The notes below the pieces were generated by a model. The model saw only the letters and a list, made by a program, of their open reading frames with translations. It was not told the DNA's origin and did no database searches. Positions 8,208-63,200 of a DNA stretch of 64,000 nt are shown piece after piece. The DNA lies in NCBI GenBank assembly GCA_965204815.1, contig OZ242014.1:1512532-1576531 (forward strand), written 5' to 3'. A program made the translations under genes and the position numbers. Position 1 is the stretch's first letter. Every line of letters starts with the position of its first letter. Origin of the DNA: Dehalococcoidia bacterium (GTDB taxonomy: Bacteria; Chloroflexota; Dehalococcoidia; Lucifugimonadales; CATOSD01).

Positions 8208-8313
8208 GTGTGGGGAACCGCCAGTCATTTCTGTAGATGATGGAGTCCATCCAATGGGGACGAAGGCCTCACTCCGTTGGCGCGTCGCCCTTGTAGGAGT
8301 TGCGCGGAAACGA

Positions 8314-8328
8314 GCCTGTGTCAGATTA
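8314..8328. repeat. 15-nt arm GCCTGTGTCAGATTA; perfect inverted partner at 8919-8933
   Basis: Read directly: 8314-8328 GCCTGTGTCAGATTA and 8919-8933 TAATCTGACACAGGC. CGCGGAAAC lies adjacent to each arm. Confidence 0.6.
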
Positions 8329-8384
8329 TCAGGCGGCTTCCACACCAACACTCCTAAGAATGCGGTGACGCGAATTCTGTTAGA

Positions 8385-8900: not shown

Positions 8901-8950
8901 TGTTATGGGCGCGCCTAGTAATCTGACACAGGCTTCGCGGAAACCGTCGA

Positions 8951-8980
8951 TTTGCACCGCGTTGTAAACGTTGATATATT
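8951..8980 (+). promoter_or_regulatory. Candidate sigma-70-type promoter for the island-1 operon
   Basis: TTTGCA (8951-8956), 18-nt spacer, TATATT (8975-8980), about 40 nt upstream of the methyltransferase ATG. Confidence 0.35.
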
Positions 8981-9019
8981 CTGCTCAAACGCGTGGTTCT
9001 GCATCAAGCGAGAACGTGT

Positions 9020-10983: not shown

Positions 10984-11019
10984 GCGGCAATGAACTCGGT
11001 TGCGAAAAGGAGAGAGTGA

Positions 11020-13320
11020 ATGAGCGAGCGAATCGCGGACATAACGCCGTCGCCCAGAATCCTCAGGATGCTAGGGAGGATAGACTTCCACCAGTGGCAG
11101 TGCCTAGCGGAGCTCATAGACAACGCTGTAGATGCGTTTCTAGTTGGACGAGAATCCGGGCATGGCACCATGTTTCCGCAAGTGAACGTAGAAATCTCTA
11201 GCAATGCTGAAATCTTGCAAGGGATAGGGACTATACGGGTTACAGATAATGCCCCTGGCATGGCATTGGATAAGTTGGAAAGCGCGGTCAGGGCTGGATT
11301 CTCAGGAAACAACTCAGTAGACAAGCTTGGCCTGTTCGGGATGGGTTTCAACGTCGCGACGGCAAGGCTCGGAGCCTGCACAGAGGTGTGGTCCACTAGA
11401 GTTGAAGATGAAGTGTGGAGTGGGGTGCGTATTGATTTTGATGAACTCGAAGAGTCAGGATCATTCGCAACACCATTTCTCCAACGTCCCAAGGCGCCAT
11501 TTGAGCAGCGCAGACATGGAACCGAAATCATAATCTCAAAGCTAGATGTTGAACGCGTCAGATACCTAAGAACCCCTGGAGGACTAAGGGCGACCAGGGA
11601 AAAACTCAGCAGGATTTACAACAAGATTATGAGAGAGGTTGGACTGCGGGTGTTAGTGGCAGACCAACCACTTGCTACGCGGGACTTCTGCGTCTGGGAT
11701 GAGGGCAGGACTGTGCCAAATTCCCGTTTTGGCCGTGTTCCGGCCCGTTTGCCAATTCATCAGGACTTTGGAAACCGGAATTATTGTGAAGACTGCTGGG
11801 TGTGGCTTCTCGAGGCCGAAGAGACGTGTCCTGCATGCAACAGCAGCAGAAACCTCCGTATGCGCAACAGGCAGGTTACTGGATGGATAGGGATACAGAG
11901 ATTCTTCGATCTGGAGGACTATGGAATTGACCTGATCCGAAACGGCAGGATTATCGAGGAACGCACGAAGCACTTCTTTTCGTGGGAGACTCCAGATGGC
12001 GATAGATTGCCTGAGTATCCAATAGAGCAACAGCATTGGGGTGGACGTATAGTCGGTGAACTGAGCATTGACTTTGTGCCACTGGAAGGACACCACAAGG
12101 ATGCATTTGATCACAATACGCAAGAGTGGCGGATGGTATTGGCAGCCGTCCGCGGTCGGGGGCCTATTCTGCCGAACATTAGGAAAGATCGCTTCGGGTA
12201 TGATGACGAGAATGACTCCCCCTTGGCGAGACTTCACTCTGCATACAGGCGAGGTTCGCCTTGCGGCTTAAACACGTTGGTGCCGGGAAACAGTGCTGGA
12301 AAGGGTATCAACACCGAACCTCAGCGGTGGGCAACCCTCTTCTGGGAAGGTAAACCTGATTACCAGTCGGACAAGATATGGCATGACGCAGTTCTCTTTG
12401 GTGAAGAGGCAAGAAACAAGAACAAGGGCAAGAAGCCAAGAGATGACAGGGAAGGAAACGACCTGTTCGACGAACCCGACGAACCAGGTGAAGAAGAGAC
12501 CAAGGAATCACCAAGCACGGATGTGGAACATGAACGTGATCCATTCCTTTCATTTGAGGCAGATCTTCCTGAGATGAGCGGCAGCCCAAGGCTGCGCGTG
12601 CAAACGGAGAGGCTAGTTCGGGGTTCGTTAAGTCAGGGATTGCATCTAGAACTCGCGCCAGTGGGTAACAACTTGACGGTCATTTACGATCCTAACCATG
12701 AGATTTTCACGAAGACTCTCGCTGATCCTCTTGGTTGCGTGTTGGAAGAGTTAGGATATCAATTCCTACAGCGAAGTGGCCAAACACAGGTCAACTGGCC
12801 TATATCTCGGATTGTTCATGAGTTAAGGAAGCGTCACTTCGCTTCGTCATTAGACAGCGTAGAAGAGGTGCGGGCGGAGTCCATAGGGCTGCTGAACGAC
12901 CTCATCGAATGGTACGTAGAAGGACTAATGAGTCTCTCCCCATTGCCTGACGATGAAGTGGATGACGAAGAGCGCGCGCGCGTGGTCCAAGGTGTCGTCC
13001 GCATGGACAGGGCTGGTCTGGAAAGAGCAGCTGAAGTCATTCGAACAGGGCTCTACCCGAAGTACATCGGGCATCAGGTTTTGCCAGCTCTTGTACAGCG
13101 GCGGCCCGAATTGGTGCTTGATGGAAAATTCTTCAGTGTTTCATTCACGGATGTCCCTGAGGAGTTGAGGGCACAAGTTGTTGAGCGAGTTACTACGCCC
13201 ATCCGAGATCTACTTTGGATTGCAGAAACTGACGATGCTGGTGGGTCTGGGAATGAGTGGCGCAACATGCTGGCCCGTGCCGCTGCCAGCTTGCGGCTTC
13301 TGTCAGCTTGGAGGTGCTGA
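11020..13320 (+). CDS. GHKL-superfamily ATPase (HATPase_c_3 / MORC-MutL-like) with internal zinc ribbon and acidic linker
   Basis: N-box ELIDNAVDAF, G1 box VTDNAPGM, G2 box GLFGMGFNVA. Zinc ribbon CEDCWVWLLEAEETCPACN. Acidic tract DLFDEPDEPGEEE. Confidence 0.8.
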   Translation: MSERIADITPSPRILRMLGRIDFHQWQCLAELIDNAVDAFLVGRESGHGTMFPQVNVEISSNAEILQGIGTIRVTDNAPGMALDKLESAVRAGFSGNNSVDKLGLFGMGFNVATARLGACTEVWSTRVEDEVWSGVRIDFDELEESGSFATPFLQRPKAPFEQRRHGTEIIISKLDVERVRYLRTPGGLRATREKLSRIYNKIMREVGLRVLVADQPLATRDFCVWDEGRTVPNSRFGRVPARLPIHQDFGNRNYCEDCWVWLLEAEETCPACNSSRNLRMRNRQVTGWIGIQRFFDLEDYGIDLIRNGRIIEERTKHFFSWETPDGDRLPEYPIEQQHWGGRIVGELSIDFVPLEGHHKDAFDHNTQEWRMVLAAVRGRGPILPNIRKDRFGYDDENDSPLARLHSAYRRGSPCGLNTLVPGNSAGKGINTEPQRWATLFWEGKPDYQSDKIWHDAVLFGEEARNKNKGKKPRDDREGNDLFDEPDEPGEEETKESPSTDVEHERDPFLSFEADLPEMSGSPRLRVQTERLVRGSLSQGLHLELAPVGNNLTVIYDPNHEIFTKTLADPLGCVLEELGYQFLQRSGQTQVNWPISRIVHELRKRHFASSLDSVEEVRAESIGLLNDLIEWYVEGLMSLSPLPDDEVDDEERARVVQGVVRMDRAGLERAAEVIRTGLYPKYIGHQVLPALVQRRPELVLDGKFFSVSFTDVPEELRAQVVERVTTPIRDLLWIAETDDAGGSGNEWRNMLARAAASLRLLSAWRC

Positions 13321-14991
13321 ATGCCGGGGTTCCTCGGAATTGAGCGATTGAGCCTCGGTCCTTGGCAAGCCTTCGAAAGGGCTGTACAGAGGTTGCTAGT
13401 ACATGCTGGGTTCGACGATGTGTTACTTGTGGGCGGAACTGGCGACGGTGGGGCCGATATCACTGCCAACCGCAACAGCCGAACCTTGGTAGTACAGGCA
13501 AAATTTAGATCCAGAGGTACATTACTAGGCACGGACCCCGTGCAGGAGGTGGCGATCGGTGCGGGGAAGTACGATGCACAGATTGCTGTAGTGGCCACAA
13601 ACACTGGATTCACAGAAGCTGCAATTGAACGTGCCGAAGAGTTGGAGTTAGACCTCGGCGTGAAGTTCTTGCTTTGGAACCGTGATTTTCTGTCAATGCG
13701 CTTTCGGCGGTTGGCTCCCTACTCGTCGGAACGGAAGGACCTGCGACCTTACCAAGAAGCCGCGGTGGAGAGAGTCAATTCCAAAATCATGCACGGTGCA
13801 GACAGGGGTCTACTCTTGATGGCGACCGGGCTTGGAAAGACGAGGGTTGCTGCGGGCGTGATTGAACAATGGATTGAAGACCGCCCAAGTGATGAAGTCC
13901 TGGTGTTGTCACCTTCGCGCAGCCTCGTTCCGCAGCTTGAGTCCGAACTTTGGCCTTACCTTCCGAAGTCCGTTGCAACACATGTTCTCACAGGATCCGA
14001 AAAGCCCAGCTTTGAAGGGGGGGTTACCGTTGCAACTGAGCAATCGATGCTTCAACAGTTACCTGATGCTCACGGCCGTTTCGGTCTGGTAATCGTAGAC
14101 GAAGCTCATCACGCGCCTGCCGATGGCTACCGCCGCCTTATTGGGGAACTGGCGCCCAAGTTCCTTTTCGGCATGACTGCAACGCCGTGGAGAAGTGACC
14201 ATCAAAATCTCGAGGAGATTTTCGGCGGACCTACTTACACTGCCAGTATCGTGGATGGTATGCAGCTAGGCTATCTTTCAAAGGTCGACTACCGGATGCT
14301 TGTAGATGACATTAACTGGGACTGGGTAAGAAGCGAATTGGGCGATGGGATCTCAGTTAAGGAACTCAATCGCAAACTGTTTATACCGGAGAGAGATGAA
14401 GCAACGGTTATGAAGATACGCCGGCACTTGGAAGCGGTTCTTGACCCCCGTGCTCTTGTGTTTTGCCGATCCATTTTGCATGCGGAGAGAATCCGGAATC
14501 TCCTCCAAGCGGAGGGTTTGTCAGCGAAGGTCCTACACAGTAAACTGGGTCGCTTCGAATCGGCTGCAACACTGAGGGCGTTTCGTTCAGGTGAAATTCC
14601 AATTCTGGTGACCGTCGACATGGTTAACGAAGGCATTGATATCCCAGACGTCAATCTGATCGTATTCCTCCGGGTGACGCATTCTAGGCGCATCTTTCTT
14701 CAGCAGCTTGGACGAGGGCTTAGGATAACAGAGAGCAAAGACATCGTCCGTGTACTTGATTTTGTGTCGGATGTACGAAGGATTGCTGAAGGTATGCGAA
14801 TCAATCGCGATGCCCTGTCACTGGCAACGAATTCAGACTCCGAGCTGGTTGTATACCCCACGGGCGAAGTCGTGAGTTTTGAGGGTGACAAGAGTCTGGA
14901 TTTCTTTCGAGAGTATCTGGCTGATGTTGCTGAGTTAGAAGAAGGAAACGATGACTCAAAGCTGAAGTTCCCTGCTGTCAGGCGAGCGTAG
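13321..14991 (+). CDS. Mrr-like PD-(D/E)xK restriction endonuclease domain fused to an SF2 DEAH helicase (ResIII + Helicase_C)
   Basis: N-terminus FERAVQRLLVHAGFDDV..GDGGADI..LVVQAKFRS (Mrr_cat pattern). Walker A MATGLGKTRV, VIVDEAHHAP, GMTATPWRSD, and C-terminal QQLGRGLR. The ATG abuts the upstream TGA (TGAATG). Confidence 0.85.
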   Translation: MPGFLGIERLSLGPWQAFERAVQRLLVHAGFDDVLLVGGTGDGGADITANRNSRTLVVQAKFRSRGTLLGTDPVQEVAIGAGKYDAQIAVVATNTGFTEAAIERAEELELDLGVKFLLWNRDFLSMRFRRLAPYSSERKDLRPYQEAAVERVNSKIMHGADRGLLLMATGLGKTRVAAGVIEQWIEDRPSDEVLVLSPSRSLVPQLESELWPYLPKSVATHVLTGSEKPSFEGGVTVATEQSMLQQLPDAHGRFGLVIVDEAHHAPADGYRRLIGELAPKFLFGMTATPWRSDHQNLEEIFGGPTYTASIVDGMQLGYLSKVDYRMLVDDINWDWVRSELGDGISVKELNRKLFIPERDEATVMKIRRHLEAVLDPRALVFCRSILHAERIRNLLQAEGLSAKVLHSKLGRFESAATLRAFRSGEIPILVTVDMVNEGIDIPDVNLIVFLRVTHSRRIFLQQLGRGLRITESKDIVRVLDFVSDVRRIAEGMRINRDALSLATNSDSELVVYPTGEVVSFEGDKSLDFFREYLADVAELEEGNDDSKLKFPAVRRA

Positions 14992-15046
14992 TTGCCTTGC
15001 GAGCCGTCATGTTTCTCCAGATGCCGTTGAAGTTTGCAGAGATAAC

Positions 15047-16531
15047 ATGGTGATCCATGTAAGAATACCTTCATGGACGCCTTGCAAGGTTGACCCAGTC
15101 TCATTCGATTGTAGCGAGTGCGAGATTGGCTGGTCCTCATGCCGACTAAAGACTGACGATAGCCTACGCCATTACTTTGCATCACTGAGCAGACGTCGGA
15201 ATGGAGTCTCCCCAACGTCCTATGGATTCGAGGTCTGGGTTGAGGAACTTGTAGCCAGTTTTCTCGAAACCCACGGATTGAGTGTTACTGCCCAGATCTT
15301 GCTCGAATATCTAGCACCAGAAATTCCACCGGATGTGTCAGAAGCGAAATTGCGCCACATCTTGATGCAGTCTTCGCGCTTCGTGGAAACGTCGCCAGGC
15401 ATGTTTAATCTGGCACCTGGCCGAATCCGGAGTGGGAGTGAGCTACCTGGCCTCACACCTTCTTCGGGGACACTACTAGAGGATTTGCTTTCTCGGGCCA
15501 ACTTGCTCGCCAGAGACGAGCAGTTGGTTAAGTTCAAAAGGCTAGCTGGGTACAGGTTCTTCATTACTCATCATCCCAGAACAAGAGAGATTGCTGCCAA
15601 GACAATTCGGGAGCTGTCGGACTGGGCACTTAACCACCGTGGCTGGAGTGAGTTCGACATCTATAAGTTCGCAGTGGGTCCAGACGGTGTCGCTCAGGCA
15701 GCAAACGATATGCATGATATTGCTTCAGAGGACGACCTTGACAGGACGCATAGATTGTTATCTGCCTTATCGGCGACCGAGTGGGGCGACTTTGGCTCGA
15801 TTGATTCGACTAGAGAAGCCTTCCGCGAATTGAGGGATGAACTGATACTTGCTAATCTCAAGCTAGTATCGTCTCAAGCCATACGATGGGCAAGGGGTCA
15901 GTTCCCAAACTACGCCGATCTCTTTCAGGAGGGGTTTTTTGGACTGACTATAGCAATCGATAGATTCGATCCCTATCGTGGAAACCAATTCTCTACGTAT
16001 GCGACTCCTTGGATCAGGCAGAGGATCACAAGGTCCGTTGCTAACTTCGAGCGCACGATTCGCATTCCCGTTCACTTGCACGATCGCATCAGCGATTTTC
16101 GTCATGCGCTTGACGAACATTATAGGGAACTTGGACACAAGCCTACAGTGAGCGAATTGTCGGCAAGGCTGGGGTGGAACACTGCAGAAGTTGCATTCGC
16201 CCTGAGTAATTTCCAGGAAGTTGATTCACTTGATAGCTTACTGGATGACCCCAGCCGCTCATTTGATGGTGATGCTGCATTCCATGTGAATCCCACTGAG
16301 ATGATCGTTGAGCAGATCGCTACAGAGGATGTTGAGAAAGTCCTGAATGCACTGAATGACAGGGAGGCCAAAATCCTAAGGCTAAGATTTGGACTAGGAG
16401 AAGACGGATACCCCCACACCCTCGAAGAGATAGGCAAAATATATGGGGTTACTCGTGAAAGAATCAGGCAGATTGAGAGCAAGGCAAAGAAGAAAATCTT
16501 GCGGAAGTATCAGTACCGTCACTTCATCTAA
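15047..16531 (+). CDS. Sigma-70 family sigma factor (regions 2, 3, 4; RpoD-like) with a roughly 270-aa N-terminal extension of unknown function
   Basis: Region 2 DLFQEGFFGLTIAIDRFDPYRGNQFSTYATPWIRQRITRSV, region 3 RTIRIPVHL, region 4 TLEEIGKIYGVTRERIRQIESKAKKKIL. Confidence 0.8.
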   Translation: MVIHVRIPSWTPCKVDPVSFDCSECEIGWSSCRLKTDDSLRHYFASLSRRRNGVSPTSYGFEVWVEELVASFLETHGLSVTAQILLEYLAPEIPPDVSEAKLRHILMQSSRFVETSPGMFNLAPGRIRSGSELPGLTPSSGTLLEDLLSRANLLARDEQLVKFKRLAGYRFFITHHPRTREIAAKTIRELSDWALNHRGWSEFDIYKFAVGPDGVAQAANDMHDIASEDDLDRTHRLLSALSATEWGDFGSIDSTREAFRELRDELILANLKLVSSQAIRWARGQFPNYADLFQEGFFGLTIAIDRFDPYRGNQFSTYATPWIRQRITRSVANFERTIRIPVHLHDRISDFRHALDEHYRELGHKPTVSELSARLGWNTAEVAFALSNFQEVDSLDSLLDDPSRSFDGDAAFHVNPTEMIVEQIATEDVEKVLNALNDREAKILRLRFGLGEDGYPHTLEEIGKIYGVTRERIRQIESKAKKKILRKYQYRHFI

Positions 16532-16573
16532 GCCGCCAGTGCCGCAGCTCACTTGCAGAGTGACGCGGCGCCG

Positions 16574-22125: not shown

Positions 22126-22995
22126 GTGCTCATTCCCTTTACCGGTCCTCTCGACCTGATAACCACGCTGGAGAGCGGCCAGGCGTTCCGCTGGCGGCGC
22201 GAGGGCGAATGGCTTACCGGCGTTGTGTTCGAGAACATCATCAGGGCGCGCCAGACGCCGGATGGGGTGGAGTTCGCGTGCGGCCCCGACGACGAGGAGG
22301 CCATCGCGCCGCTGTTCCGGGATTACCTGCGCCTGGACGACGACCTTGAGATGATCCGTGACCGCATTCGCGTGGACGACCGCATCGGGGCCGCGCTGTT
22401 GCGCTATCCCGGACTGCGCGTGCTGCGCCAGGAGCCGTGGGAGTGCCTGGTCTCGTTCATCTGCTCGGCGAACAACAACGTGCCGCGAATCAGTGTCAAC
22501 GTTGAGGACATCGCCGAGAACTTCGGCAGGCCCCTTTCGTTCGGCGAGTGCCGACGCAGCGCGTTCCCCTCTCCAGCCGAGCTGGCACAGGTGGAAGAGC
22601 AGGACCTGCGCGCGCTCGGTCTGGGATTCAGAGCCAAGTACGTCGCGGGGGCGTCCCGCATCGTGGCCGCGGGCGACCTGGACCTGTTCGCGCTGCGCGA
22701 GGCGGACTACGACGAGGCGCTGACGGCGCTGCTTGCGTTGCCGGGAGTAGGCGACAAGGTGGCCAACTGCATTCTGCTCATGTCGCTGGACAAGCGGGAG
22801 GCTTTCCCGGTTGACGTGTGGATAGATCGCGCACTGCGGGAGTGGTACCCGGAGCACGTCATTCGCGCCGATGGCAAGCCACTCACCCGCGCCGCCATGC
22901 GGCCCTGGGCGCAGTCCTACTTCGGCGAGTACGCCGGATACGCCAACCAGTATCTCTTCCAGGGCCGCCGCCTGCTGAATAGGAGCGGAGCATAG
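22126..22995 (+). CDS. ogg: 8-oxoguanine DNA glycosylase/AP lyase (Ogg1-type, HhH-GPD)
   Basis: GTG at 22126, 2 nt after the dinG stop. OGG_N-like LESGQAFRW, HhH-GPD LPGVGDKVANCILL and FPVDVWI. The long track ORF 21379-22995 overlaps dinG out of frame in its first part. Confidence 0.8.
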   Translation: MLIPFTGPLDLITTLESGQAFRWRREGEWLTGVVFENIIRARQTPDGVEFACGPDDEEAIAPLFRDYLRLDDDLEMIRDRIRVDDRIGAALLRYPGLRVLRQEPWECLVSFICSANNNVPRISVNVEDIAENFGRPLSFGECRRSAFPSPAELAQVEEQDLRALGLGFRAKYVAGASRIVAAGDLDLFALREADYDEALTALLALPGVGDKVANCILLMSLDKREAFPVDVWIDRALREWYPEHVIRADGKPLTRAAMRPWAQSYFGEYAGYANQYLFQGRRLLNRSGA

Positions 22996-23055
22996 GGTGC
23001 CGCGAGCGGCGGCGTGGAGGTTGGCGAGGCGTTCTCATACTATTTGCGGATGGGC

Positions 23056-23079
23056 AGGCTGACAAGGGTGGGTCAGCCT
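23056..23079 (+). terminator. Hairpin downstream of ogg (possible terminator), at the left edge of island 2
   Basis: AGGCTGAC (23056-23063) / GTCAGCCT (23072-23079), 8-bp stem, followed by a T/C-rich tract. Confidence 0.4.
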
Positions 23080-23205
23080 TTCCCCAAATCCTTTTTCTCC
23101 TTCAATGAGGAAGGCCAACAGGAGAGCGTAGATTGTAGAAGTCATCAAGTAGCACGTTGTGTATAATGAATCGGCCGCATACTTTGCTATTGGATCGAAC
23201 TCCAA

Positions 23206-24546
23206 ATGACTGACGTACAGGAGATTCTGCTCTCAACAATAGCAGAAAAGCGCCCCTTAATTCTCCTATTGGGCGAAGATGCTTGGAGCGACTCGCCACA
23301 GGGTGATGTCCTTCTGACGTCCGCACTCCAGAGGCTCTATGGGATCACCGAGCAAAGGAGCGGGTGGTCGGGGATGCTCACAGGAGAATCCGTACCCTCT
23401 GGGCATTATGACTGGCTAGCAGAACGCTTTGAGCGACGAAGGCACCCTCCATTTGTCGAAGTGTTGAGGGACCTCCCATGGGGCGCAGTGTTCACATCGT
23501 CGATAGACCCGACGCTCGTGAGGCTGTTTTCATATCGAGGGAGAGAGCCCGAGCCCATCCTAACTGAGGGGGAGCGTCCGCGCGCTGCCCGGAGTACGGT
23601 GCGACCACCCTTATACTATCTGTTTAGTCGCGCAGGTGAGCAGGACTTTAAGGCGCAACCACCAAGCAACCGGCGAGAACTAAACACTCGTCGTGCCCAG
23701 CATGCGGTTCCCTTACTCAACCGAATTCGGGAAACTGCGACGCCCCTAGGCACAATTGTCGTTGACGGGCTGTTGCGGGGAAACGGATGGCTCAGAATCC
23801 AGGATCTGCTAGGTGCACTTGAAGGAGCTTCGGCACATCAGATTCTATGGTTTGGCGGCAAGCCCGATCTACCTCCAGAGGATGCGGACTACTTTACGGA
23901 ACTTGTGCAAGATGGGGAAATAGTCGTTTCGGAAAAGCGACTTGGAACCGTCACTGCTGAGCTCAAAGCTACGGGGTGGCTTGCCGACATCGTTCCACTT
24001 GAATCTGAAGACGCCGGTCAAATCAGCTTCGCATCAGGTGGAGTGTATGAAGTTCCACCTGATGTCCGACTTAGAGTCGAAGCGGTGGCTTCAATCGTCG
24101 ACGACTCTTGGACTTCTTTCCTTCCACCACTCGGGCCAGATTCTAGGTACGATGCATTTCGTAGATTCCACGGTGCCCTAGGTGGGGCTCGACTTCTGGT
24201 AGAGGGTGTCAGAAGAGATTTTGCGATCGAGAGAGACTTTGAGCAACAGCTATCGAAGCAAGTGTTCGCCGCGCTTGCAGATCATTCAAGGCTCGATCTG
24301 CCTATAGTAATCGAAGGCCAATCTGGGGTTGGTAAGTCCGTAGCCTTGGCACGTCTTGTGGCTAAAGTAAGGGAAGAAAAGGCAGCGGCCGTACTCTATT
24401 CGATTGGCCGTGTCCCTCAATCCCAAGAAGTCTCAGGATTTTGCCAGGCGGTTGAGCGATCAGATGCGCCTGTGACGCTGATTGTATGCGATGCCAACAG
24501 GAATATCGACGACTATGACGAACTGTTGAGCGGACTGAGGGCCTAG
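23206..24546 (+). CDS. Island-2 protein A: divergent SIR2-like (SIR2_2-pattern) N-terminal region plus the P-loop NTPase N-half (Walker A/B); likely the 5' part of a split STAND-type gene
   Basis: PLILLLGEDAWS, AVFTSSIDPTLVRLF, PLYYLFS and ILWFGGKPDL mirror the SIR2_2 block order, but GAG, N/D and H positions are substituted. Walker A IEGQSGVGKSVALARL. Walker B VTLIVCDANR sits about 20 aa before the stop. Confidence 0.55.
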   Translation: MTDVQEILLSTIAEKRPLILLLGEDAWSDSPQGDVLLTSALQRLYGITEQRSGWSGMLTGESVPSGHYDWLAERFERRRHPPFVEVLRDLPWGAVFTSSIDPTLVRLFSYRGREPEPILTEGERPRAARSTVRPPLYYLFSRAGEQDFKAQPPSNRRELNTRRAQHAVPLLNRIRETATPLGTIVVDGLLRGNGWLRIQDLLGALEGASAHQILWFGGKPDLPPEDADYFTELVQDGEIVVSEKRLGTVTAELKATGWLADIVPLESEDAGQISFASGGVYEVPPDVRLRVEAVASIVDDSWTSFLPPLGPDSRYDAFRRFHGALGGARLLVEGVRRDFAIERDFEQQLSKQVFAALADHSRLDLPIVIEGQSGVGKSVALARLVAKVREEKAAAVLYSIGRVPQSQEVSGFCQAVERSDAPVTLIVCDANRNIDDYDELLSGLRA

Positions 24547-24635
24547 GGAGACGTGTTGTAGTAGTTGGATCACAGTATCGTGTTTCTGCCAACGAAAGCG
24601 GGGATCAACATCCACGCCTTGAGGCCACGTCTGGC

Positions 24636-26603
24636 TTGTCAGCAACTGAGAGGCAGAAACTGCTCGAGCTAATTGGTTCCTTTGACGTAGGCACGCAGTT
24701 TCAACCAGAAGGCGAGCACTTCTTGGCGTTCTTGTACCGTCACTTGCCGGCCAGCAGACCACACATCGGCTCTGGTCTCGGCGCGGAGGCAAGAGCGACC
24801 GTGCAAGTGTTGGATGAAAGGGGCAATCAGCAACAGCCAACGCCCGTAATCAGCAAGTTACACCAACAACTCGTTGAGAAGGGGTACATAAGCGAGTATC
24901 AGGCTCTCTTTGATGACCGACAATCCGACGAATTAGACGCTAATGAGCTCTCTGCGGGAAAGATCGTGGATATGGTCATGGTGGCTGGCAGGCTGAACTG
25001 CCCAGTTCCCGTGAACGTCCTTTTACGAGCAGTTAGCGACCAGTATCAGAGGTTTGACTCCACGCTAGTCTCCAGCCTATTCCGTGATCTCGACTTGTTT
25101 AGATGGGACTCTGGTGACTCCCAAGGCAACGAACTAGTTGTGCTTCCCCGGTTGCCGCTTGAGGCGCAACTCATCTGTGAACGTAGGCTTGGGAGTACGC
25201 AAGCCGAAGCTGGCGTAATCGTTGACTTGATAGGCTCGGTTCGGCTTGGGCTTGACGGGACTCACGAACGAGCATTCCTGCTTAATCTCCTTCAGCAAGT
25301 CGGACGCGACGGACCTCGGGGTAGTGCTTACAGGCATACCTATGCGGACTTTGCTCGAAAACTTACCGAACTGCGTAATCAATACAATGTGGTTGACGCC
25401 AGCCTAATGTTGCAGGAATCTGCTTTCCGAAGGAGTGCAGTGCGGGAAGAGCAAGTTGACGACGAACTTCACTTCTCACTATTAGAAGAAGCACGTGATG
25501 CGGTACAGACTGCACTAGACGGAATTGACAATGGACAGTTGCGGGCAGCAAGGCGAACGCGGCAAAACCTCCTTGTCGAACGCGCGGCACTCTATGGGTT
25601 TCTCGCTAACGACCGTGCCAGGCGAAACGAGATATCTACGGATATATGGTCTGCGTACCAAGCTGCAAGGGTTGCAGTTCGTCAAGCGGTAAGCGCAGCA
25701 GACAACTATTATCCCTACGATGTAGGAATTTGGAGCCCTGCCGACCTATTCGAATCTGCTGATTTGACAGAATCACAACGTGCGGAACTGGCGGCGGACA
25801 TATATTCCACATTGGATCAGGTGGAGCGGAACTCACTGCCACCGTCCCAAAGACAGAAGTTTCGGAGGCGCCAGATGACTGTCGGCGGTGTGCTCGGAAA
25901 CCAGGCACTCACAGACGCCGCCTACGTTGAACTTGAACGCCTGGGGTCGACTGCCGGATATTTCTTGCGCGCGCGAGGAATTGCCCCTGAATTGGGAAGC
26001 CAAGAGGTTGAAGTAACTCTAACCGCGGACATTGAGAGAGCCCAGAGAGCTGCTGACTTTTTGACTGAGCGTTTCGACAAGATTCGACAAGATGAGCGAT
26101 GTCTGTGGTTGCTACTGGAGAACCGTTGGATCACTCTGATGAGGCGTCGGCCACTTCGTGGCCAGCGTCAACCATTGCCTGAAGGCGATGCTCGTCTTGA
26201 ACTTCTCGACATCATCCGTTCGCTTAACCTTGCTGCCGGTGACTCGGCACGGTACGGGACTCGCTATCTTGAGGCAGTGCTCATATGGTTGTCGAACGAC
26301 TATATTGCCGCACGCGAGATCTTTCGACAACTCGATAGAGAAACCGATAATGTTTACCGAGGTCGAGTCTTTCGGCGTCACGTGATATCCGACTCTAGTG
26401 GCGGCCCCAAGGGATTCACCGGACGGATTGAGGACCGAACTGGACAAGACCGATGGCGGCTTCGGGTAAACGAACTCGGCCAAACAATAGACTTGCTCGA
26501 AAGAGATTTCTCCCGCGAAGACATACAATATGGACGGACACTGTCCGGATTCGCCATTGCATTCAATTTCATTGGTCCAATTGCTGATCCCATTAGGCGA
26601 TAG
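24636..26603 (+). CDS. Island-2 protein B: continuation of the NTPase core followed by about 600 aa of helical region and a small C-terminal domain
   Basis: The frame is open from 24519. In-frame upstream peptide GRRVVVVGSQYRVSANESG...RLEATSGLSATERQKLLELI resembles the post-Walker-B strand and signature helix of STAND/AAA NTPases. TTG start per the track, with no good RBS. Confidence 0.5.
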   Translation: MSATERQKLLELIGSFDVGTQFQPEGEHFLAFLYRHLPASRPHIGSGLGAEARATVQVLDERGNQQQPTPVISKLHQQLVEKGYISEYQALFDDRQSDELDANELSAGKIVDMVMVAGRLNCPVPVNVLLRAVSDQYQRFDSTLVSSLFRDLDLFRWDSGDSQGNELVVLPRLPLEAQLICERRLGSTQAEAGVIVDLIGSVRLGLDGTHERAFLLNLLQQVGRDGPRGSAYRHTYADFARKLTELRNQYNVVDASLMLQESAFRRSAVREEQVDDELHFSLLEEARDAVQTALDGIDNGQLRAARRTRQNLLVERAALYGFLANDRARRNEISTDIWSAYQAARVAVRQAVSAADNYYPYDVGIWSPADLFESADLTESQRAELAADIYSTLDQVERNSLPPSQRQKFRRRQMTVGGVLGNQALTDAAYVELERLGSTAGYFLRARGIAPELGSQEVEVTLTADIERAQRAADFLTERFDKIRQDERCLWLLLENRWITLMRRRPLRGQRQPLPEGDARLELLDIIRSLNLAAGDSARYGTRYLEAVLIWLSNDYIAAREIFRQLDRETDNVYRGRVFRRHVISDSSGGPKGFTGRIEDRTGQDRWRLRVNELGQTIDLLERDFSREDIQYGRTLSGFAIAFNFIGPIADPIRR

Positions 26604-26604
26604 A

Positions 26605-27492
26605 ATGCAGTTCTCAGAATTGAATGCGGAAGTCGAAAACCTACGCCGGTCACTTAGGAGCTTTGTGGGCGAGAACGCTCTTGAGGAAATCAACGTTCAA
26701 GCTCCGGCACGTTATGACGAGGCCTCGTTTCTTCGCTTAGGTGCGTGGAGCTATGTTCTCATCTTTGAGGCTGGCAGAGTGACGATTCCATTCCTACTTA
26801 AGCTTCCTTCCGGCCTGGGTACGCCGCAGTCCAAAATGAAGGAAACACTCGATCTGGTGCACGATCTCCGTACTTGGAGCTTCCATAACCTGAGTTTTGC
26901 TAGTGAGCGCGAGCTTGAAATGTCGAGGAGGACTACGCTGTGGTTTATAAGAAACTCCGGCTCCAGTCCCCCTAAGGATATCGCAGGATGGAGCCGCAGC
27001 TTTGAGTCCCTTTGTATCGACGTACATGCTATTGTCGCCCACTGTAAAGCTGCGTTCGAATGTGCTTTGTCCTCACCTGAAGACGAGCCGACGATAGTTG
27101 ACGACTTAAATCGCCGAGTGGATCGTAGTTGGCCTGCGTACAGATTCGACGAACTCGTTAGCGACGCCGTTATGCGTATTGGACAGAAGCTCGACGTCCC
27201 TACATTCCGTCAAAGCAGGCTCTCGAAGTGGCGAAACTATCTGCAGACGATTGCGGAGGGCGATGAACCGGAGACACAAATCGTACGCTTCATTGAGCGC
27301 GACGTTCTTGACTATTTTGAATCCGTACTCCCCATTGACGGCAAAGACGTCATGGCAGAGCTAGGTCTGAGCCCCGGACCGGCAGTAGGTAGAGCCTTAA
27401 GCAATGCTCGTCGCCTTTACGGGGCAGGAGTGACTGATCGGAACAAGCTACTAGCCTGTCTTCAAAGGGACGCCGGAAGGTTTACAACTTAA
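26605..27492 (+). CDS. Island-2 protein C: unknown function; possible HEPN-like Rx4H motif and a C-terminal motif resembling the CCA-adding enzyme/poly(A) polymerase C-terminal region
   Basis: ATG at 26605, 1 nt after the protein B stop (TAGAATG). DLRTWSFHN gives R-x4-H. C-terminal DGKDVMAELGLSPGPAVGRALSNARRLY matches the G(K/H)DL..LG..PGP..G pattern. Confidence 0.5.
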   Translation: MQFSELNAEVENLRRSLRSFVGENALEEINVQAPARYDEASFLRLGAWSYVLIFEAGRVTIPFLLKLPSGLGTPQSKMKETLDLVHDLRTWSFHNLSFASERELEMSRRTTLWFIRNSGSSPPKDIAGWSRSFESLCIDVHAIVAHCKAAFECALSSPEDEPTIVDDLNRRVDRSWPAYRFDELVSDAVMRIGQKLDVPTFRQSRLSKWRNYLQTIAEGDEPETQIVRFIERDVLDYFESVLPIDGKDVMAELGLSPGPAVGRALSNARRLYGAGVTDRNKLLACLQRDAGRFTT

Positions 27493-27628
27493 CCATCGAT
27501 ATTGTTGGTTGCGAAAAAGAACAAATCGGGGTGCAGAGCAAATGCTCCGCTCGATCATGCCCACCGTCCGAATTATAGACTTCACCAGCCCAACCGGAAC
27601 CCCTGCGGGGTAAATTGCGGAGAATTGC

Positions 27629-27672
27629 AGTATTCAAGTGGATCGATCACGTGGTAATCGCCTTCACCCGAC
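27629..27672 (+). pseudogene. Orphan 5' fragment homologous to the start of the VOC/epimerase gene at 29366-29752
   Basis: AGTATTCAAGTGGATCGATCACGTGGTAATCGCCTTCACCCGAC matches the reverse complement of 29710-29752 (AGTGTTCAAGTGGGTAGATCACGTCGTAATCGCCGTCAACGACC). GTA replaces the GTG start codon. Confidence 0.55.
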
Positions 27673-27674
27673 AG

Positions 27675-28073
27675 GCTGGCGCAAGTGGAGGAGTCGGCGT
27701 TGCGCAAACTCGGGCTGGGCTTCAGGGCCAAGTACGTCGCGGGTGAGGCCCGCATTGTGGCCGCGGGCGACCTGGACCTGTTCGCGCTCCGCGAGGCGGA
27801 CTACGACGAAGCCCTCGCCGCACTGCTCGAGCTGCCGGGCGTGGGCGACAAGGTAGGCAACTGCATTCTGCTCATGTCGCTGGATAAACGGGAGGCGTCC
27901 CCGGTTGACTTGTGGATAGACCGCGCGCTGCGGGAATGGTACCCGGAGCACGTCATTCGCGCCGACGGCAAGCCGCTGACCCGCGCCGCCATGTGGCCCT
28001 GGGCGCAGTCCTACTTCGGCGAGTACGCTGGCTACGCAATCCAGTACCTGTTTCAGGGCCGCCGCCTGCTGAA
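27675..28073 (+). pseudogene. Orphan 3' fragment of an ogg homolog (direct repeat of 22581-22979)
   Basis: 399-nt gap-free alignment with 22581-22979, with about 51 mismatches by hand count. Encodes LGLGFRAKYVAGEARIVAAGDLDLF...LPGVGDKVGNCILLMSLDKREASPVDLWIDRALREWYPEHV. It has no 5' half and no equivalent stop. Confidence 0.8.
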
Positions 28074-28139
28074 GAAGGGTGGCGGAAAGAAGTGTGTGGG
28101 ACGGAGGGCGCGGACCCAGGGTCCTTTCATTATCCGTCG

Positions 28140-28555
28140 CGGCAACCTGCCGACGGGTGAGGGCAACGGCGTCCCTTCCGCTTATCACCTCTCCCCCAAC
28201 TCCAACCCATTCGCGCCCGCGTACCCCGAAAAAAGCGTCACTTTCCCGCGCCACCCGTTCCCTTCCGTGCGCCATCCATTCTCATCCGCGCCCCACCAGT
28301 CCTCATTCCTGCGCCATTTCTCACCACTAATCCGCCCCTATCCCGCATCTTCGCCAACCCTCTTGATTCTATAGCACGACCGTGCTATTTTCTACAGCAT
28401 AGGCGCTGCGGCCGCCGATTGCGGATCGCCTGGTAGGGGCGGGTTTCAAACCCGCCCGCCGCCGGCCCAGGACCACCATCGCGTACCTGCCACATTCCGC
28501 GCAATGCACGTGACGAACCTTAACAACTTGGCTCACAGAAAGTGACACAAACATC
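28140..28555 (-). repeat. Dispersed non-coding repeat, copy B (inverted relative to copy A at 8385-8900)
   Basis: The reverse complement aligns block by block with copy A, including the GGGCGGGTTTGAAACCCGCCC hairpin (28438-28458) and three 21-bp phased units (28243-28305). Confidence 0.7.
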
Positions 28556-28660
28556 GGGCCGCCCAGCTACGGAATAGGCGGAATGTAGCAGAACTGAGCA
28601 GATTTTTCGGAAGGCACCGCACAAAGTCCCTGACCCTCTCTCCGAGCCGGAGAGGGGAGA

Positions 28661-29299
28661 ATGAAAAGACCCTGCGCACGGAACGAGAAATCGCGCCGCA
28701 GATTCGCTCCTTGTGCTATGCTATATCTGATGACCGCCACCCGACTCACCCTGTTCGCCGCGACTCTGATCTGGGTTGCCCTCGCCTGTTCGTCTCCCGA
28801 GCCGACGCCGACGCCTGAGCCGACTTCCACGCCGGCTCCCACGGCCATCCCCGTACCGACGGCGCCCCCTGAGCCAACGCCCGAACCCACTCCCACGCCG
28901 TCCGGCCAGCCCACGCGCGGGCTGTTCGAGTACATCCGCGCGGTCTCGTACCTCGAGGCGAACCTGTGGGAGGAGGCCATCCCCGCTTACGGGCTGGTGA
29001 TTCGCATCCTTCCGGACATGGCCGTTGCGTACCACGGGCGGGGATACGCCTACTACAACGAGGCCATCGAGGAGGAGAACGACAACCTGTTCAGGCCCGC
29101 GATGGAGGACTACGACAAGGCTATCGAGCTAAAGCCCGAATTCGCGCAGGCGTACAAGGACCGGGCGATCCTGCACCACCACTTGGGCGACACGGAGGCC
29201 GCAATCGCCGACATCGAGCGCGCGGTGCGTCACTACGACCCGCGTCGGCAGCCCGTCGGCCTGAACGAGGCCAGAGAGCTTCTGAACCAGTGGCGCTAG
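28661..29299 (+). CDS. TPR-repeat lipoprotein with Pro/Thr-rich linker
   Basis: Signal/lipobox-like LIWVALACSS, PEPTPTPEPTSTPAPT linker, and TPR-like AYHGRGYAYYN and AQAYKDRAILHHHLGD. The true start may be the internal Met at 28718. Confidence 0.7.
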   Translation: MKRPCARNEKSRRRFAPCAMLYLMTATRLTLFAATLIWVALACSSPEPTPTPEPTSTPAPTAIPVPTAPPEPTPEPTPTPSGQPTRGLFEYIRAVSYLEANLWEEAIPAYGLVIRILPDMAVAYHGRGYAYYNEAIEEENDNLFRPAMEDYDKAIELKPEFAQAYKDRAILHHHLGDTEAAIADIERAVRHYDPRRQPVGLNEARELLNQWR

Positions 29300-29302
29300 G
29301 TC

Positions 29303-29340
29303 CCTTCCCCCTCGCAGGGGGAAGGTTAGGATGGGGGTGA
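29303..29340 (+). repeat. Hairpin + GTTAGGATGGGGGTGA intergenic repeat (likely terminator of the upstream gene)
   Basis: CCTTCCCCC (29303-29311) / GGGGGAAGG (29317-29325) form a 9-bp stem, followed by TTAGGATGGGGGTGA. Related copies are at 57416-57453, 63201-63237 and 8532-8599. Confidence 0.6.
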
Positions 29341-29365: not shown

Positions 29366-29752
29366 CTAGTCCCGCTCCACGAGCTGGATTAGCACGCCGT
29401 GCGAGTCCGCCGGGTGGATGTACGGACCGCCGGGACCTTCGATGATCCTCGCGCCGTTCGCCTTCAGCTCCTCGCCGGCCTTCTCCCGGTCGTCCACCGC
29501 GATAGCGATGAGGTGAATGCCCTCGCCCCTACGGGCGATGCTGCGGCCCACCGGCGTCTCGGGGCCGAGCGCCTCAACCAACTCGATGAACCGGCCGCTC
29601 TCTCCGAGCGGAAGGATGGCCTGGCGCAATCCGAGGTGCGGCTGCTCCCTGTCTTTGACCTCGGCCTTTAGTCCCAGCTTGGTCTCATAGTCCTCGACCG
29701 CTCCCGCCAGGTCGTTGACGGCGATTACGACGTGATCTACCCACTTGAACAC
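29366..29752 (-). CDS. VOC-family protein, methylmalonyl-CoA epimerase/glyoxalase-like
   Basis: 128 aa. MFKWVDHVVIAVNDLAGAVEDYETKLGL and GEGIHLIAIAVDD follow the VOC pattern. GTG start. Confidence 0.75.
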   Translation of the reverse strand: MFKWVDHVVIAVNDLAGAVEDYETKLGLKAEVKDREQPHLGLRQAILPLGESGRFIELVEALGPETPVGRSIARRGEGIHLIAIAVDDREKAGEELKANGARIIEGPGGPYIHPADSHGVLIQLVERD

Positions 29753-32231: not shown

Positions 32232-33236
32232 CTAGCATCCGGGTGGATAGCTCTTGCTCGACACCAGCGTACCGTCGGTATCGTACAGGCCCGCCTCGTC
32301 CGGGTCGCTGTTGCTCCAGATCGCGCTGCGTGACCCGAAGCTGAATCCTCCCGAATCCGAGTGTACCTGATTGGTATAGACACGGATCGTTTCACCCGGC
32401 GCCAGTGTCCGCGTTGGGAACACGAACTGCGGCTTGCCGTCCGCGATGTCCAGCAGCCGCCATCCCCTCAGCTCTTGGGGGCTTCCGCCTTCGTTCACGA
32501 TTGCCACGTACTCGTCGGATTCCGTCCGCGGCACCTCTCCGTCGAAGAACACGCAGGCGATGCGCACGTCCGGCGTCGCCGATTCAGGCGTGTCAGTGGG
32601 TTCGGGCGTAGGAGTGTCGGTTGGCAGTGGTGTGGGCGTATCGGTCGGCGTGGGGTTAGGCGTGTCAGTTGGCTCTGGCGTCGGAGTGTCGGTCGGCGCT
32701 GGGGTGTCGGCAGGCTGTGGCATGGCCGTGTCGGTCGGTGCTGGCGCTGGCGTATCTGTAGGCGGTGGTATGGGTGTATCGGTCGGACGCGGGGCAGGTG
32801 TGTCCGTCGGGTGCGGGCTGGCAGTGCGGGTCGGCGCGGCCGTTGGCGTGTTGGTCGGCAGCGGCGTTGGAGTCCGCGTCGGCAGGGCAGTCACTGTTGC
32901 GGTAGCCTCAGGCGTGGGCGTCGGAGTTGCCTCAGGCGGTGGCGTGGCCGAGGGCCCAGGAGTAGGCTGCGGCGTCAGCGTAGGCGTGGGCCGTGTAGTG
33001 GCGACAGCCGTTGGTTCGGGCGCAGCCGTAGGCGCGGGCGCCAGCGCCGCGACCAGCACCGGCGTATCTGTGGGCGCTGGCGTAGGTGCTGGCGACGGAG
33101 TGGCTGTGCCCGCGGCGCCTGTCTGCCCGCCACACGCGGACGACAGGGCGAGCAGAGCGAAGGCGGAAACCACGATGACCAGCCGCACGACAACGCGCAA
33201 CTGGCGCGCTGGGCAGTCTGGCTCGTTGTCCTCCAT
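32232..33236 (-). CDS. Secreted/anchored protein with a very long Pro-Thr-Asp repeat region and a C-terminal lamin-tail-like (LTD) domain
   Basis: N-terminal TM/signal segment with ALSSACGG. About 200 aa of PTDTPxPxPTDTP repeats. C-terminal [24 protein letters not shown]...[15 protein letters not shown] follows the LTD pattern. Confidence 0.65.
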
Positions 33237-37894: not shown

Positions 37895-37946
37895 GTGGTT
37901 ACGATACCAATGGTGTCGCAAGTGACTTGCTCCCGTTGGGAGATCT

Positions 37947-37971
37947 GAGGGGCCGAATAGGCCCCTCTTTT
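37947..37971 (+). terminator. Rho-independent-terminator-like hairpin between the promoter and the NYN gene
   Basis: GAGGGGCC (37947-37954) / GGCCCCTC (37960-37967), loop GAATA, followed by TTTTGTGTT. Confidence 0.45.
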
Positions 37972-37988
37972 GTGTTGGTGAAGTTTTC

Positions 37989-38750
37989 ATGCCATTGCGA
38001 ACAGTGATATTCATAGATGGTCAGAACTTTCGAAACAGCCTTCGCAGCTTTCGGTTCAGTTCCGACCCGCCACACCCGCAAACCCCCCAATACCAGCTTG
38101 AAGAATTGCACTTCGATTGGAGCAAGTTCTTCAAGGCGGTCATCGACAAATTTGACGAGAGCACGGGTTGGGAGCATCAACTGATCAGGGTCTATTGGTA
38201 CTTCGCAAGGGACATCAGCCCTTGGGAGGAACGAAGGGACTTGGCCCAGAGAGTGGTGGATAGGTATCATCTGGAAGTCGATGGACTTACTGTCCAAAAG
38301 GTGGTTGACCTAGCTCAAGAATGGTACCGCCGCGAAAGGTCATACTTCGAGTCCCTCAGGGAGAAGCGATTTGAAAATATTCAACGCGATGTGAATTTCC
38401 TGGAGTTCAAGTACGTCGGACAGTACGTCGTTCGTCCCTTCACTCCGTACCGCGGTGTAACATTGAGCGATGACGGAAAAATTCAATATCGTGGAAGACA
38501 ACAAGGCGAAAAGGGAGTTGATACCGGCATCGCCGTTGACATGATATCCAAAATGCCTTACTACGACACCGCCATCCTTATCAGTGGTGATTCAGACTTC
38601 ATACCAGTAGTCGGCTATCTGAAGGATAATCTCAAGTACGTTTACCAATTCTCATTGGCAAGCGGCGTGCCACCCTCAATCCGATACTTGTCCCCCTGGC
38701 TTAGAGGATTAGTAGATTGTTTCGAAGCGTTCACCGAATTGGAATTGTAG
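37989..38750 (+). CDS. NYN-domain (LabA/limkain-b1-type PIN-like) predicted ribonuclease
   Basis: VIFIDGQNFRNS, EKGVDTGIAVDM and AILISGDSDFIPVV are the three acidic NYN motifs; 253 aa. Confidence 0.8.
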   Translation: MPLRTVIFIDGQNFRNSLRSFRFSSDPPHPQTPQYQLEELHFDWSKFFKAVIDKFDESTGWEHQLIRVYWYFARDISPWEERRDLAQRVVDRYHLEVDGLTVQKVVDLAQEWYRRERSYFESLREKRFENIQRDVNFLEFKYVGQYVVRPFTPYRGVTLSDDGKIQYRGRQQGEKGVDTGIAVDMISKMPYYDTAILISGDSDFIPVVGYLKDNLKYVYQFSLASGVPPSIRYLSPWLRGLVDCFEAFTELEL

Positions 38751-38839
38751 ACTAGATTCCTCAATAAAGAGTCTGGAATACCCCGTCCGATACTCTCCGC
38801 GATTGATAGCAGAATCGTCCAACTTCAAAGTATGGCTAC

Positions 38840-39079
38840 ATGACAAGCAGAATGCTTGAACTACTGACCAGTTACTTGATGGACGACCTGGATCTTGTGT
38901 CGCTTGAAGACCTCGTGGTTCCTCTCGCGTGGGAAGAGGACGGTCCAGCGCAAGACGTCGTTGATCGGGTCGCCGCCGAGATAGCATTGGTCAAGGATGG
39001 CGCTTCCGACGAAACGATGTTCAGAGAGCGCATTGAAGAGATTATCGCGTCCTCTGCCGCGCCCGCTCGAAACGCCTGA
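38840..39079 (+). CDS. Small acidic hypothetical protein (79 aa)
   Basis: ORF only; Asp/Glu-rich with no recognisable motif. Lies between the two convergent RNase-like genes. Confidence 0.3.
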   Translation: MTSRMLELLTSYLMDDLDLVSLEDLVVPLAWEEDGPAQDVVDRVAAEIALVKDGASDETMFRERIEEIIASSAAPARNA

Positions 39080-39118
39080 ACAATCTCATAGCGTCCAGAC
39101 CGGAACCTGCCGAATAGC

Positions 39119-40753: not shown

Positions 40754-40821
40754 TTTGCATTACCACGTTCCGATCAAGTACTTCGCCTTGATACATGCCA
40801 ATAGCCTCGGCCTTGCGATAC

Positions 40822-57325: not shown

Positions 57326-57415
57326 GTTCCCCTTGTGGTTGCCGCTTCCAACAGTCCCTTCCTCCTGCCAAGTGGAAGCTTAGAGCCCGTCCTGAGCCCG
57401 GCGCTTCACATAGTC

Positions 57416-63197: not shown

Positions 63198-63200
63198 CCT

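Follow-up and report, generated by a model that had tools for sequence, protein, structure and literature searches.

In a 64,000-nt window taken from a 3.3-Mb contig in the metagenome-assembled genome (MAG) of an uncultured, marine or subsurface lineage of Dehalococcoidia (Chloroflexota), the gene ogg for 8-oxoguanine DNA glycosylase is followed by Island 2, an insert with a two-gene NTPase cassette, and then by a second, truncated copy of the ogg 3′ end. We found this locus to be better explained by recombination-driven import of DNA from a relative than by an element that integrates itself. More specifically, we put the chances at about even that Island 2 is chromosomal DNA imported from a Dehalococcoidia resembling the island-free genome L001, and that it entered by a homologous crossover on its right and an illegitimate joint on its left. 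The initial annotation of this DNA had taken the two ogg ends for the attL- and attR-like repeats of an integrating element.

The two ogg ends, called here copy A (the 3′ part of the intact gene) and copy B (the detached fragment), align between 22581-22979 and 27675-28073. The alignment is gapless over 399 nt and contains 51 mismatches (87.2% identity; BLASTN E = 1.5e-142), so that the approximate count in the initial annotation proved exact; no further match to the pair above noise was found by BLASTN elsewhere in the window. In the ogg frame 35 of the 51 mismatches lie at codon position 3, and the codons differ by 34 synonymous and 12 non-synonymous changes, in agreement with the claim that the differences are largely synonymous and that both copies evolved as coding sequence. 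Similarity between A and B breaks off at both ends of the repeat; the homology of copy B to the ogg of relatives begins 14 nt earlier, at 27661. The longest run identical in both copies has 34 nt, and the final 20 nt of the repeat (22960-22979 in A) are identical. This 20-nt block is conserved coding sequence: L001 and the closest relatives have it unchanged, and only slight differences are seen in more distant genomes. At the proximal repeat boundaries the common identical core comprises only 6 nt, GCTGGC. GC content drops from 63-69% in the flanks to ~52-57% between the two copies.

The two copies differ in how they have evolved. Copy B has no ogg 5′ half, beginning at codon ~148, and has lost its stop through a point change (TGT at 28093-28095, TGA in relatives), both as the initial annotation had noticed, and its tail resembles that of L001 (KKGGGKK). 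Copy B has 14 private changes; 6 of these fall on codon position 1 or 2, where the compared relatives (L001-L006) do not vary. Changes private to A number 12, and 11 of them are at codon position 3. By these patterns copy A appears to be under purifying selection and copy B to be a decaying pseudogene.

To characterize the site without the island, nine island-free genomes were compared with the window: L001-L006, with an Ogg identity of 83-92%, and the closer relatives L088, L091 and L093, which are ~93-94% identical to the window at the nucleotide level across 6.4 kb. The wider ogg survey covered 80 ogg loci and the closer relatives, which were added afterwards. In nine out of nine relatives a single ogg is followed after ~35 nt by a gene for a tetratricopeptide repeat (TPR) lipoprotein and then by a glyoxalase/VOC gene in the opposite orientation, VOC(-), with no island; the order ogg-TPR-VOC(-) was recorded in L088, L091, L093 and L094. 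Judged by these empty sites, Island 2 is a real insertion into the ogg 3′ end, as had been proposed. Island-free relatives carrying the tandem ogg fragment, the counter-example named by the initial annotation, were looked for as well, and the truncated second fragment was absent from all 80 ogg loci and from the closer relatives added later. None of these loci carried an island at ogg either, so recurrent occupation of the target was not seen. An ancestral island lost from the relatives was ruled out, as copy B is nearer to L001 than the remaining ogg is. Tandem full-length ogg paralogs were seen in three distant Dehalococcoidia (L046, L068 and L071; ~9100-11720); they are ~40-50% identical to the query and are unrelated to the truncated fragment.

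The phylogeny of the two 3′ ends, which the initial annotation had suggested as a check, assigned them to different lineages and pointed to B as the foreign one. In neighbour-joining trees with bootstrap, B and L001 were sisters with 97% support, and A and B were sisters in 0 of 300 replicates. Copy A fell with the L088 group with a support of just 53%; the ogg 5′ half joined the same group with 88%. Identities gave the same picture: copy A is 92.0-92.5% identical to L088, L091 and L093 and 89.3% to L001, the ogg 5′ half is 92-94% identical to the L088 group, and copy B is 93.7% identical to L001 and 87-88% to the closest relatives. Since the ogg 5′ half and copy A both fall with the closest relatives, we read copy A as the resident type, and copy B appears to be foreign and L001-like. 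The opposite assignment of copy B as the resident, which the collinearity of B with the genes downstream and its L001-like tail had suggested, was overturned by the closer relatives L088, L091 and L093. A duplication in situ was ruled out by the absence of an A+B grouping in all 300 replicates and of any private derived state shared by the copies.

The extent of the foreign sequence was followed with diagnostic sites, defined as positions at which L088, L091 and L093 are identical to each other and differ from L001. Along the path through copy A these sites are predominantly of the close-relative type. Between 27663 and 28709, 31 out of 44 sites (70%) are of L001 type, starting with a run of 12, and beyond 28723 they are mostly not of L001 type. 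For comparison, among 1,380 diagnostic sites in ~14 kb of flanks 22% are of L001 type, the longest run is 5, and a share of 60% is reached by 1.1% of 20-site windows. Types are uniform along each copy, resident in A and L001 in B. The L001-type tract thus covers ~500 nt of host sequence, contiguous with the cassette, and extends ~90 nt past the repeat to ~28709. Since it lies exactly beside the cassette, the simplest reading is that the tract came with it.

At the island's opposite end the boundary is of a different kind. The left flank aligns to L088, L091 and L093 at ~93-94%, and the alignment stops exactly at 22979, as does the homology to all the other relatives; here the left joint (CGCCTGCTGAA up to 22979, TAGGAGCGGAGCATAGG from 22980) follows the conserved QGRRLL codons and lies within the variable basic tail of ogg. 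The resident-type gene ends in CTGCTGAA and then reads on as TAGGAGCGGAGCATAG, giving a 289-residue product that ends in NRSGA. This C-terminal tail (NRSGA*) occurs in this genome only; 11 of 11 cluster-mates have 291 residues with K/R-rich tails. The 110 nt after 22979 showed no significant similarity to the tails or intergenic regions of the relatives (z <= 2, against z 15-28 among the relatives themselves), which ruled out that tail A is a diverged ogg tail, and the spacer that begins there (spacer X) had no BLAST match in 87 loci. The left joint is accordingly abrupt and, as far as these alignments tell, non-homologous. The basic tail of ogg is variable and dispensable, and 22979/22980 is the left-most position that leaves ogg functional; selection would therefore retain such a joint.

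Between the cargo and copy B lies a relic, VOC′, which corresponds to the beginning of a VOC gene and is inverted relative to the resident one. VOC′ matches the resident VOC gene's 5′ end at 27 of 30 nt, and it is 81-86% identical to VOC genes of the clade over 44-47 nt including the ribosome-binding site (RBS). Its upstream part aligns weakly to the conserved VOC promoter and is much more diverged. As these promoters are nearly invariant among relatives, VOC′ would be older or have come from farther away than copy B. The internal joint of VOC′ with ogg (GTAATCGCC up to 27662, TTCACCCGACAGGCTGG from 27663) has a 2-nt microhomology, CC, and a patchy similarity of 6/8. In homology-facilitated illegitimate recombination (HFIR) a microhomology of 3-10 bp is expected at the illegitimate joint; the joint of VOC′ with ogg would be older than the left one. 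From its sequence it looks like an illegitimate joint.

The L001-type tract is interrupted after copy B by a non-coding segment of 560 bp resembling a miniature inverted-repeat transposable element (MITE). We rejected this segment as a part of the island on account of its inverted ends and target duplication, which identify it as a separate MITE-like insertion; by its structure it is an independent element that would have entered the foreign tract. It is missing from this site in every relative, and a search of 96 other loci revealed no copy; the window itself holds a second one, diverged and inverted, at 8208-8995, where it forms the GC-rich left edge of Island 1. Terminal repeats of the island or of the cassette, whether inverted or direct, did not exceed those in shuffled sequences, and Rfam and tRNA scans of the locus returned nothing relevant. 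The true start of the TPR lipoprotein is probably internal to the annotated open reading frame (ORF). The features of the locus are listed in Table 1.

Table 1. Features of the ogg locus and Island 2, in coordinates of the 64-kb window
Feature	Position	Strand	Remarks
Intact ogg (8-oxoguanine DNA glycosylase)	22126-22995	+	289 aa, GTG start; OGG_N and HhH-GPD domains; TIGR00588 E 8.5e-63; identical to P0241
Copy A (ogg codons ~148-285, with the catalytic HhH-GPD motif)	22567-22979	+	appears to be of the resident lineage type
Left joint and unique spacer X	22980-23159	+	gives the last 5 codons and stop of ogg; no homolog in any search
Cargo cassette	23160-27492	+	4.33 kb, GC ~53%; DNA homology to other genomes 23160-27485, left start 23160-23204
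nSTAND5 NTPase gene (PF25199)	23206-26603	+	split into ORFs 23206-24546 (446 aa) and 24636-26603 (655 aa)
Partner gene	26605-27492	+	295 aa
VOC′ relic (start of a glyoxalase/VOC gene: promoter-like region, RBS, first 11 codons)	27553-27662	+	~110 nt; inverted relative to the resident VOC gene
Copy B with its own tail, 5′-truncated ogg, codons ~148-291	27661-28095	+	L001-like; reads as a decaying pseudogene
Remaining L001-type tract (intergenic sequence plus the initial bases of the TPR-gene region)	28096-28722	+	interrupted by the MITE-like insertion; inferred crossover at ~28710-28722
MITE-like non-coding insertion	28115-28674	+	560 bp; terminal inverted repeats CAGGGTCYTTTCATTMTCC, 17/19; ~9-bp target duplication
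TPR lipoprotein gene	28661-29299	+	TPR Pfam matches; directly 3′ of ogg in every relative
Resident VOC gene	29366-29752	-	

These observations can be assembled into a course of events. HFIR is known to result in an insertion together with a small deletion in the recipient and microhomology at the illegitimate joint (PMC3240628). At the ogg locus a donor-type tract ending in a homologous crossover lies on one side (27661-28709), an abrupt non-homologous joint lies on the other (22979), and ~90 nt present in the relatives are missing between the joints. The incoming fragment would have consisted of spacer X, the nSTAND5 cassette, the VOC′ relic, the 5′-truncated ogg with its tail, intergenic DNA and the start of the TPR gene. 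On the right, the pattern of diagnostic sites suggests a homologous crossover with the resident chromosome at ~28710-28722. On the left, the abruptness of the joint is seen directly, and illegitimate joining of the fragment to the resident ogg at 22979/22980 is the mechanism we infer from it. Selection for a working ogg is proposed to have confined the left joint to the tail and kept the resident copy A. On balance, ~5.7 kb would have taken the place of ~90 nt of the resident sequence (tail, stop and intergenic DNA). The second ogg copy would then be a hitch-hiking flank of the donor, not an att site, and would have decayed since. The VOC′ relic, whose divergence exceeds everything else in this clade, may be an older scar of a still earlier host with the cassette located upstream of a VOC gene, joined later to ogg codon ~148 at the 2-nt microhomology.

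Several points weigh against this explanation. The whole case rests on one metagenome-assembled contig, with no independent assembly of the junctions. No donor genome with the arrangement cassette-VOC′-truncated ogg was found, so the structure of the donor is inferred. A VOC(+) gene beside ogg, as expected of the donor, occurred in 0 of 80 ogg loci; a donor search in one metagenome scan returned just three distant cassette loci, and searches in IMG/VR and by junction k-mers returned nothing. Textbook HFIR would pair the whole homologous stretch, yet ~415 nt of donor ogg were left unrecombined beside the resident copy, for which we propose selection for an intact ogg as the explanation. The right crossover falls just ~40-50 nt past the MITE-like insertion, which is a mild coincidence. 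Finally, the 5′ region of the TPR gene is itself a population mosaic, and the resident type there is defined by proxy. The 5′ end of this gene (28700-28800) is a fine-scale mosaic of lineage types across L001, L002, L088 and L094-L096, a pattern that suggests frequent homologous exchange in the population.

Direct duplications around an insert can also arise from a Campbell-type single crossover of a circle that carries the cassette with an ogg 3′ fragment. Such a duplication is the expected product of a circle with a truncated homology fragment, and duplications of 109-950 bp were obtained in E. coli conjugation experiments (PMC3240628). The crossover would, however, predict reciprocal mosaics around one point, whereas copy A is uniformly of resident type and copy B uniformly of L001 type. 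Moreover, the L001-type tract runs ~90 nt past the end of the duplication, and A and B lack the shared derived states that would mark a former identity. In a variant of this explanation, the cassette was inserted in situ with a 415-nt duplication and the right copy was later converted to the L001-like type; the conversion tract would then naturally stop at the homology boundary 27661, but two rare events are needed. We consider this explanation, with its variant, unlikely. A mirror-image import seems improbable to us. According to it, copy A, its tail, the cassette and VOC′ came from a close relative through a left anchor in ogg, VOC′ was joined illegitimately at ogg codon ~148, and copy B is the displaced resident end. 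The donor would need only the simple arrangement ogg-cassette-VOC(+), the microhomology between VOC′ and ogg is as expected of an illegitimate joint, and the decay of copy B fits a displaced end. The difficulty is that a ~500-nt patch of L001 type must have existed beforehand exactly at the insertion point, and such tracts are otherwise absent from the 14 kb of flanks. In addition, the donor of copy A would have to be indistinguishable from the resident lineage, and so close a donor predicts a VOC sequence ~95% identical to the resident one, against the observed 81-86% and a far more diverged promoter.

In the classic attL/attR footprint, the gene-fused copy is borne by the element and the detached fragment is the displaced resident end. 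At the ogg locus this polarity is reversed, since the fused copy is of resident type and the detached one is foreign. An att-type exchange also leads one to expect an identical core with the switch of lineage exactly there, and neither was observed; the foreign-type tract that continues beyond the repeat fits a homologous crossover, not an att core. The att reading of the initial annotation was therefore sustained in placing the insertion at the ogg 3′ end, and it failed on the polarity of the copies, the missing recombinase, the missing att core and the foreign tract past the repeat. Its expectation that recombination between the repeats would excise the cassette precisely did not hold either: an in silico exchange between A and B deletes 5,094 bp and leaves an ogg frame that, for want of its stop, runs on into the MITE-like element and encodes an Ogg of 384 residues compared with the normal 289-291. 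A site-specific element of the e14/icd type, inserted at the ogg 3′ end with a substitute end, could nevertheless be imagined if its integrase was lost or acted in trans, possibly with an aberrant excision that picked up host ogg. The layout resembles icd-e14-icdC (PMC13626634), both copies end in the 20-nt identical block, and in L083 the cassette lies inside an element with a type IV secretion system (T4SS) and a serine recombinase. No recombinase or remnant of one was found in Island 2 or the other islands checked, the 20-nt block is conserved coding sequence with foreign-type sequence continuing beyond it, no island sits at any other ogg locus of the survey, and elsewhere the cassette occurs without an ogg piece or repeats. 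Together with the reversed polarity, this makes such an element very improbable. An assembly artefact, in which a chimeric join or a mixed-strain consensus produced the mosaic or the junctions, is the least credible of the alternatives. The genome is a MAG that has no independent assembly, the boundaries of the foreign tract (22980 and ~40 nt past the MITE-like element) coincide with the structural breakpoints relative to island-free haplotypes, and the frameshift in the cargo could be a sequencing error. Against this, the ~13% divergence of the two types is too great for collapse by an assembler or for recruitment of reads away from their own contig, a non-homologous joint such as that of VOC′ with ogg is not expected from haplotype switching, and copy B bears its 14 private changes in a pseudogene-like pattern.

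The cargo of Island 2 is a cassette of an nSTAND5 NTPase gene and a partner gene. The clades of nSTAND proteins were named in work on predicted counter-invader systems (PMC8195603), and the sequence matches predict the cargo to be a recombinase-free two-gene STAND-NTPase module of this kind. Intact homologs at other loci have 1131 residues, each followed by a partner of 293-312 residues. In the window the NTPase gene is split by a 1-nt deletion near 24540, located by tblastn and blastn, which apparently inactivates it here; the deletion is either a real pseudogenization or a long-read indel error. The PF25199 profile scored 39.8 bits with the intact homolog P0001 and 32.4 bits with the first window ORF, against a curated cut-off of 34; the ORF falls below the cut-off because the frameshift cuts the domain. 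PADLOC gave nothing for the cassette at E <= 0.01, the single match being mads_8 at E 0.035, and the cassette proteins had no NCBIfam match and no informative PDB match. The statement of the initial annotation that the island has no recombinase was borne out by Pfam and PADLOC scans, which covered all ORFs of Island 2 as well as nine small ones from the gaps and from the MITE region and found neither a recombinase nor a remnant; none was found in Islands 1 and 3 either.

In other genomes, which are GC-rich, the cassette is always of low GC, and it adjoins mutL in L081, L082 and L084. In L083 (4.4-Mb contig; L083:1-23402) a cassette of 70% nucleotide identity is located between a cluster of serine-recombinase and helix-turn-helix (HTH) genes and genes for a T4SS, a relaxase-like protein and a coupling protein. 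This gene context suggests that an integrative conjugative element carries it as cargo there. Neither ogg fragments nor flanking repeats were found around the cassette in L081, L083 and L084, and no ogg fragment was found in L082.

The window contains further elements outside the ogg locus. Island 1 (8208-16571) is an 8.4-kb low-GC segment that begins immediately behind the stop of a carboxyltransferase gene and is absent from nine of nine relatives. Its genes code for a C5 cytosine methylase, an HhH-GPD glycosylase, a GHKL-type ATPase, a fusion of an Mrr nuclease with a helicase, and a sigma-70-like protein; no recombinase is among them. Island 1 was considered as a second case of a foreign tract in the flank and rejected, as its flanks are of resident type up to the joints. 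A third low-GC stretch (37900-41500) encodes an NYN-domain protein and has two ORFs of 544 and 250 residues without Pfam matches; its part 38838-39297 is present in L091 and L093 at ~80% identity. A 41-nt GC-rich hairpin repeat, GTCCCTTCCCCCTCGCAGGGGGAAGGTTAGGATGGGGGTGA, similar to repetitive extragenic palindromic (REP) elements, occurs in intergenic positions at 29300-29340, 57413-57453 and 63197-63237, with related copies in L002 and L003. At 32569-32868, in a region that aligns poorly between relatives, there is an array of imperfect 66-nt (and 24/48-nt) repeats.

The ogg locus provides a concrete natural example of how defence-type cassettes that have no mobility genes may enter a genome through recombination with the DNA of relatives. 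The scars of such an import are datable: a foreign half-gene, an older promoter relic and an altered C-terminus of the resident gene. The locus also calls for caution in annotation, as diverged direct repeats of a gene 3′ end around an island are not on their own evidence of an att site or a hidden integrase, and att integration can be told from import by typing each copy phylogenetically against relatives that lack the island. The nested relics, which would record earlier hosts, are the interesting part of the locus. They lead to a more general speculation, which we hold to be rather unlikely, that the nSTAND5 cassette spreads among Dehalococcoidia as a recombinase-free ‘flank-hitchhiker’, taking pieces of neighbouring genes with it at each hop, VOC′ at one and the truncated ogg with downstream DNA at the next. 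If this were true, captured housekeeping fragments would serve as homology arms for entering the next related genome, and the nested relics could be read like a travel log of the hosts passed through in succession.

The locus can be compared with several known systems. With the nSTAND counter-invader systems (PF25199; PMC8195603) the cargo shares the match of its NTPase to nSTAND5, the long multi-domain protein and the small, low-GC, horizontally mobile module. It differs in its two-gene form, with a conserved 295-residue partner and without a significant PADLOC match, an NCBIfam match or an informative PDB match, and in the frameshift of the local copy. The e14 prophage (PMC13626634, citing Hill et al. 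1989) has its own integrase, excises site-specifically and carries the copy that is fused to icd. As at ogg, an intact gene, an island and a diverged 3′ pseudogene fragment follow one another, and an exchange between the two copies would remove the island and leave a chimeric gene. Unlike e14, Island 2 has no recombinase, its fused copy is the resident one, and its deletion product (384 residues) would lack the stop.

HFIR, which is known from Acinetobacter, from Streptococcus pneumoniae, from Pseudomonas stutzeri and from E. coli conjugation (PMC3240628), resembles the ogg locus in having one homologous and one abrupt non-homologous end, in the replacement of recipient DNA (~90 nt here) and in needing no recombinase. 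The joint of VOC′ with ogg, the sole illegitimate joint of which both parents can be inferred, has the 2-nt microhomology. The differences are that the event at ogg was not observed and the locus was interpreted from comparative sequence, that ~415 nt of homologous donor DNA remained unrecombined and left a diverged direct repeat instead of the usual simple insertion-deletion, and that the insert has 5.1-5.7 kb compared with ~1 kb typical of the experiments. HFIR was also proposed for the displacement of type VI secretion system (T6SS) and Rhs cassettes that leaves orphan 3′ gene ends (PMC5361080). In these T6SS effector-immunity, Rhs and contact-dependent inhibition (CDI) systems the anchor gene belongs to the toxin system and the orphans come from displaced effectors, whereas at Island 2 the anchor is an unrelated housekeeping repair gene and the ogg fragment would come from the donor, not the recipient. 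They have in common with Island 2 the entry of a cassette anchored on one side, beside a conserved gene and with no integrase, the stranded 3′ fragments (‘orphans’) of earlier arrangements, and loci that are mosaics of lineages (PMC5361080).

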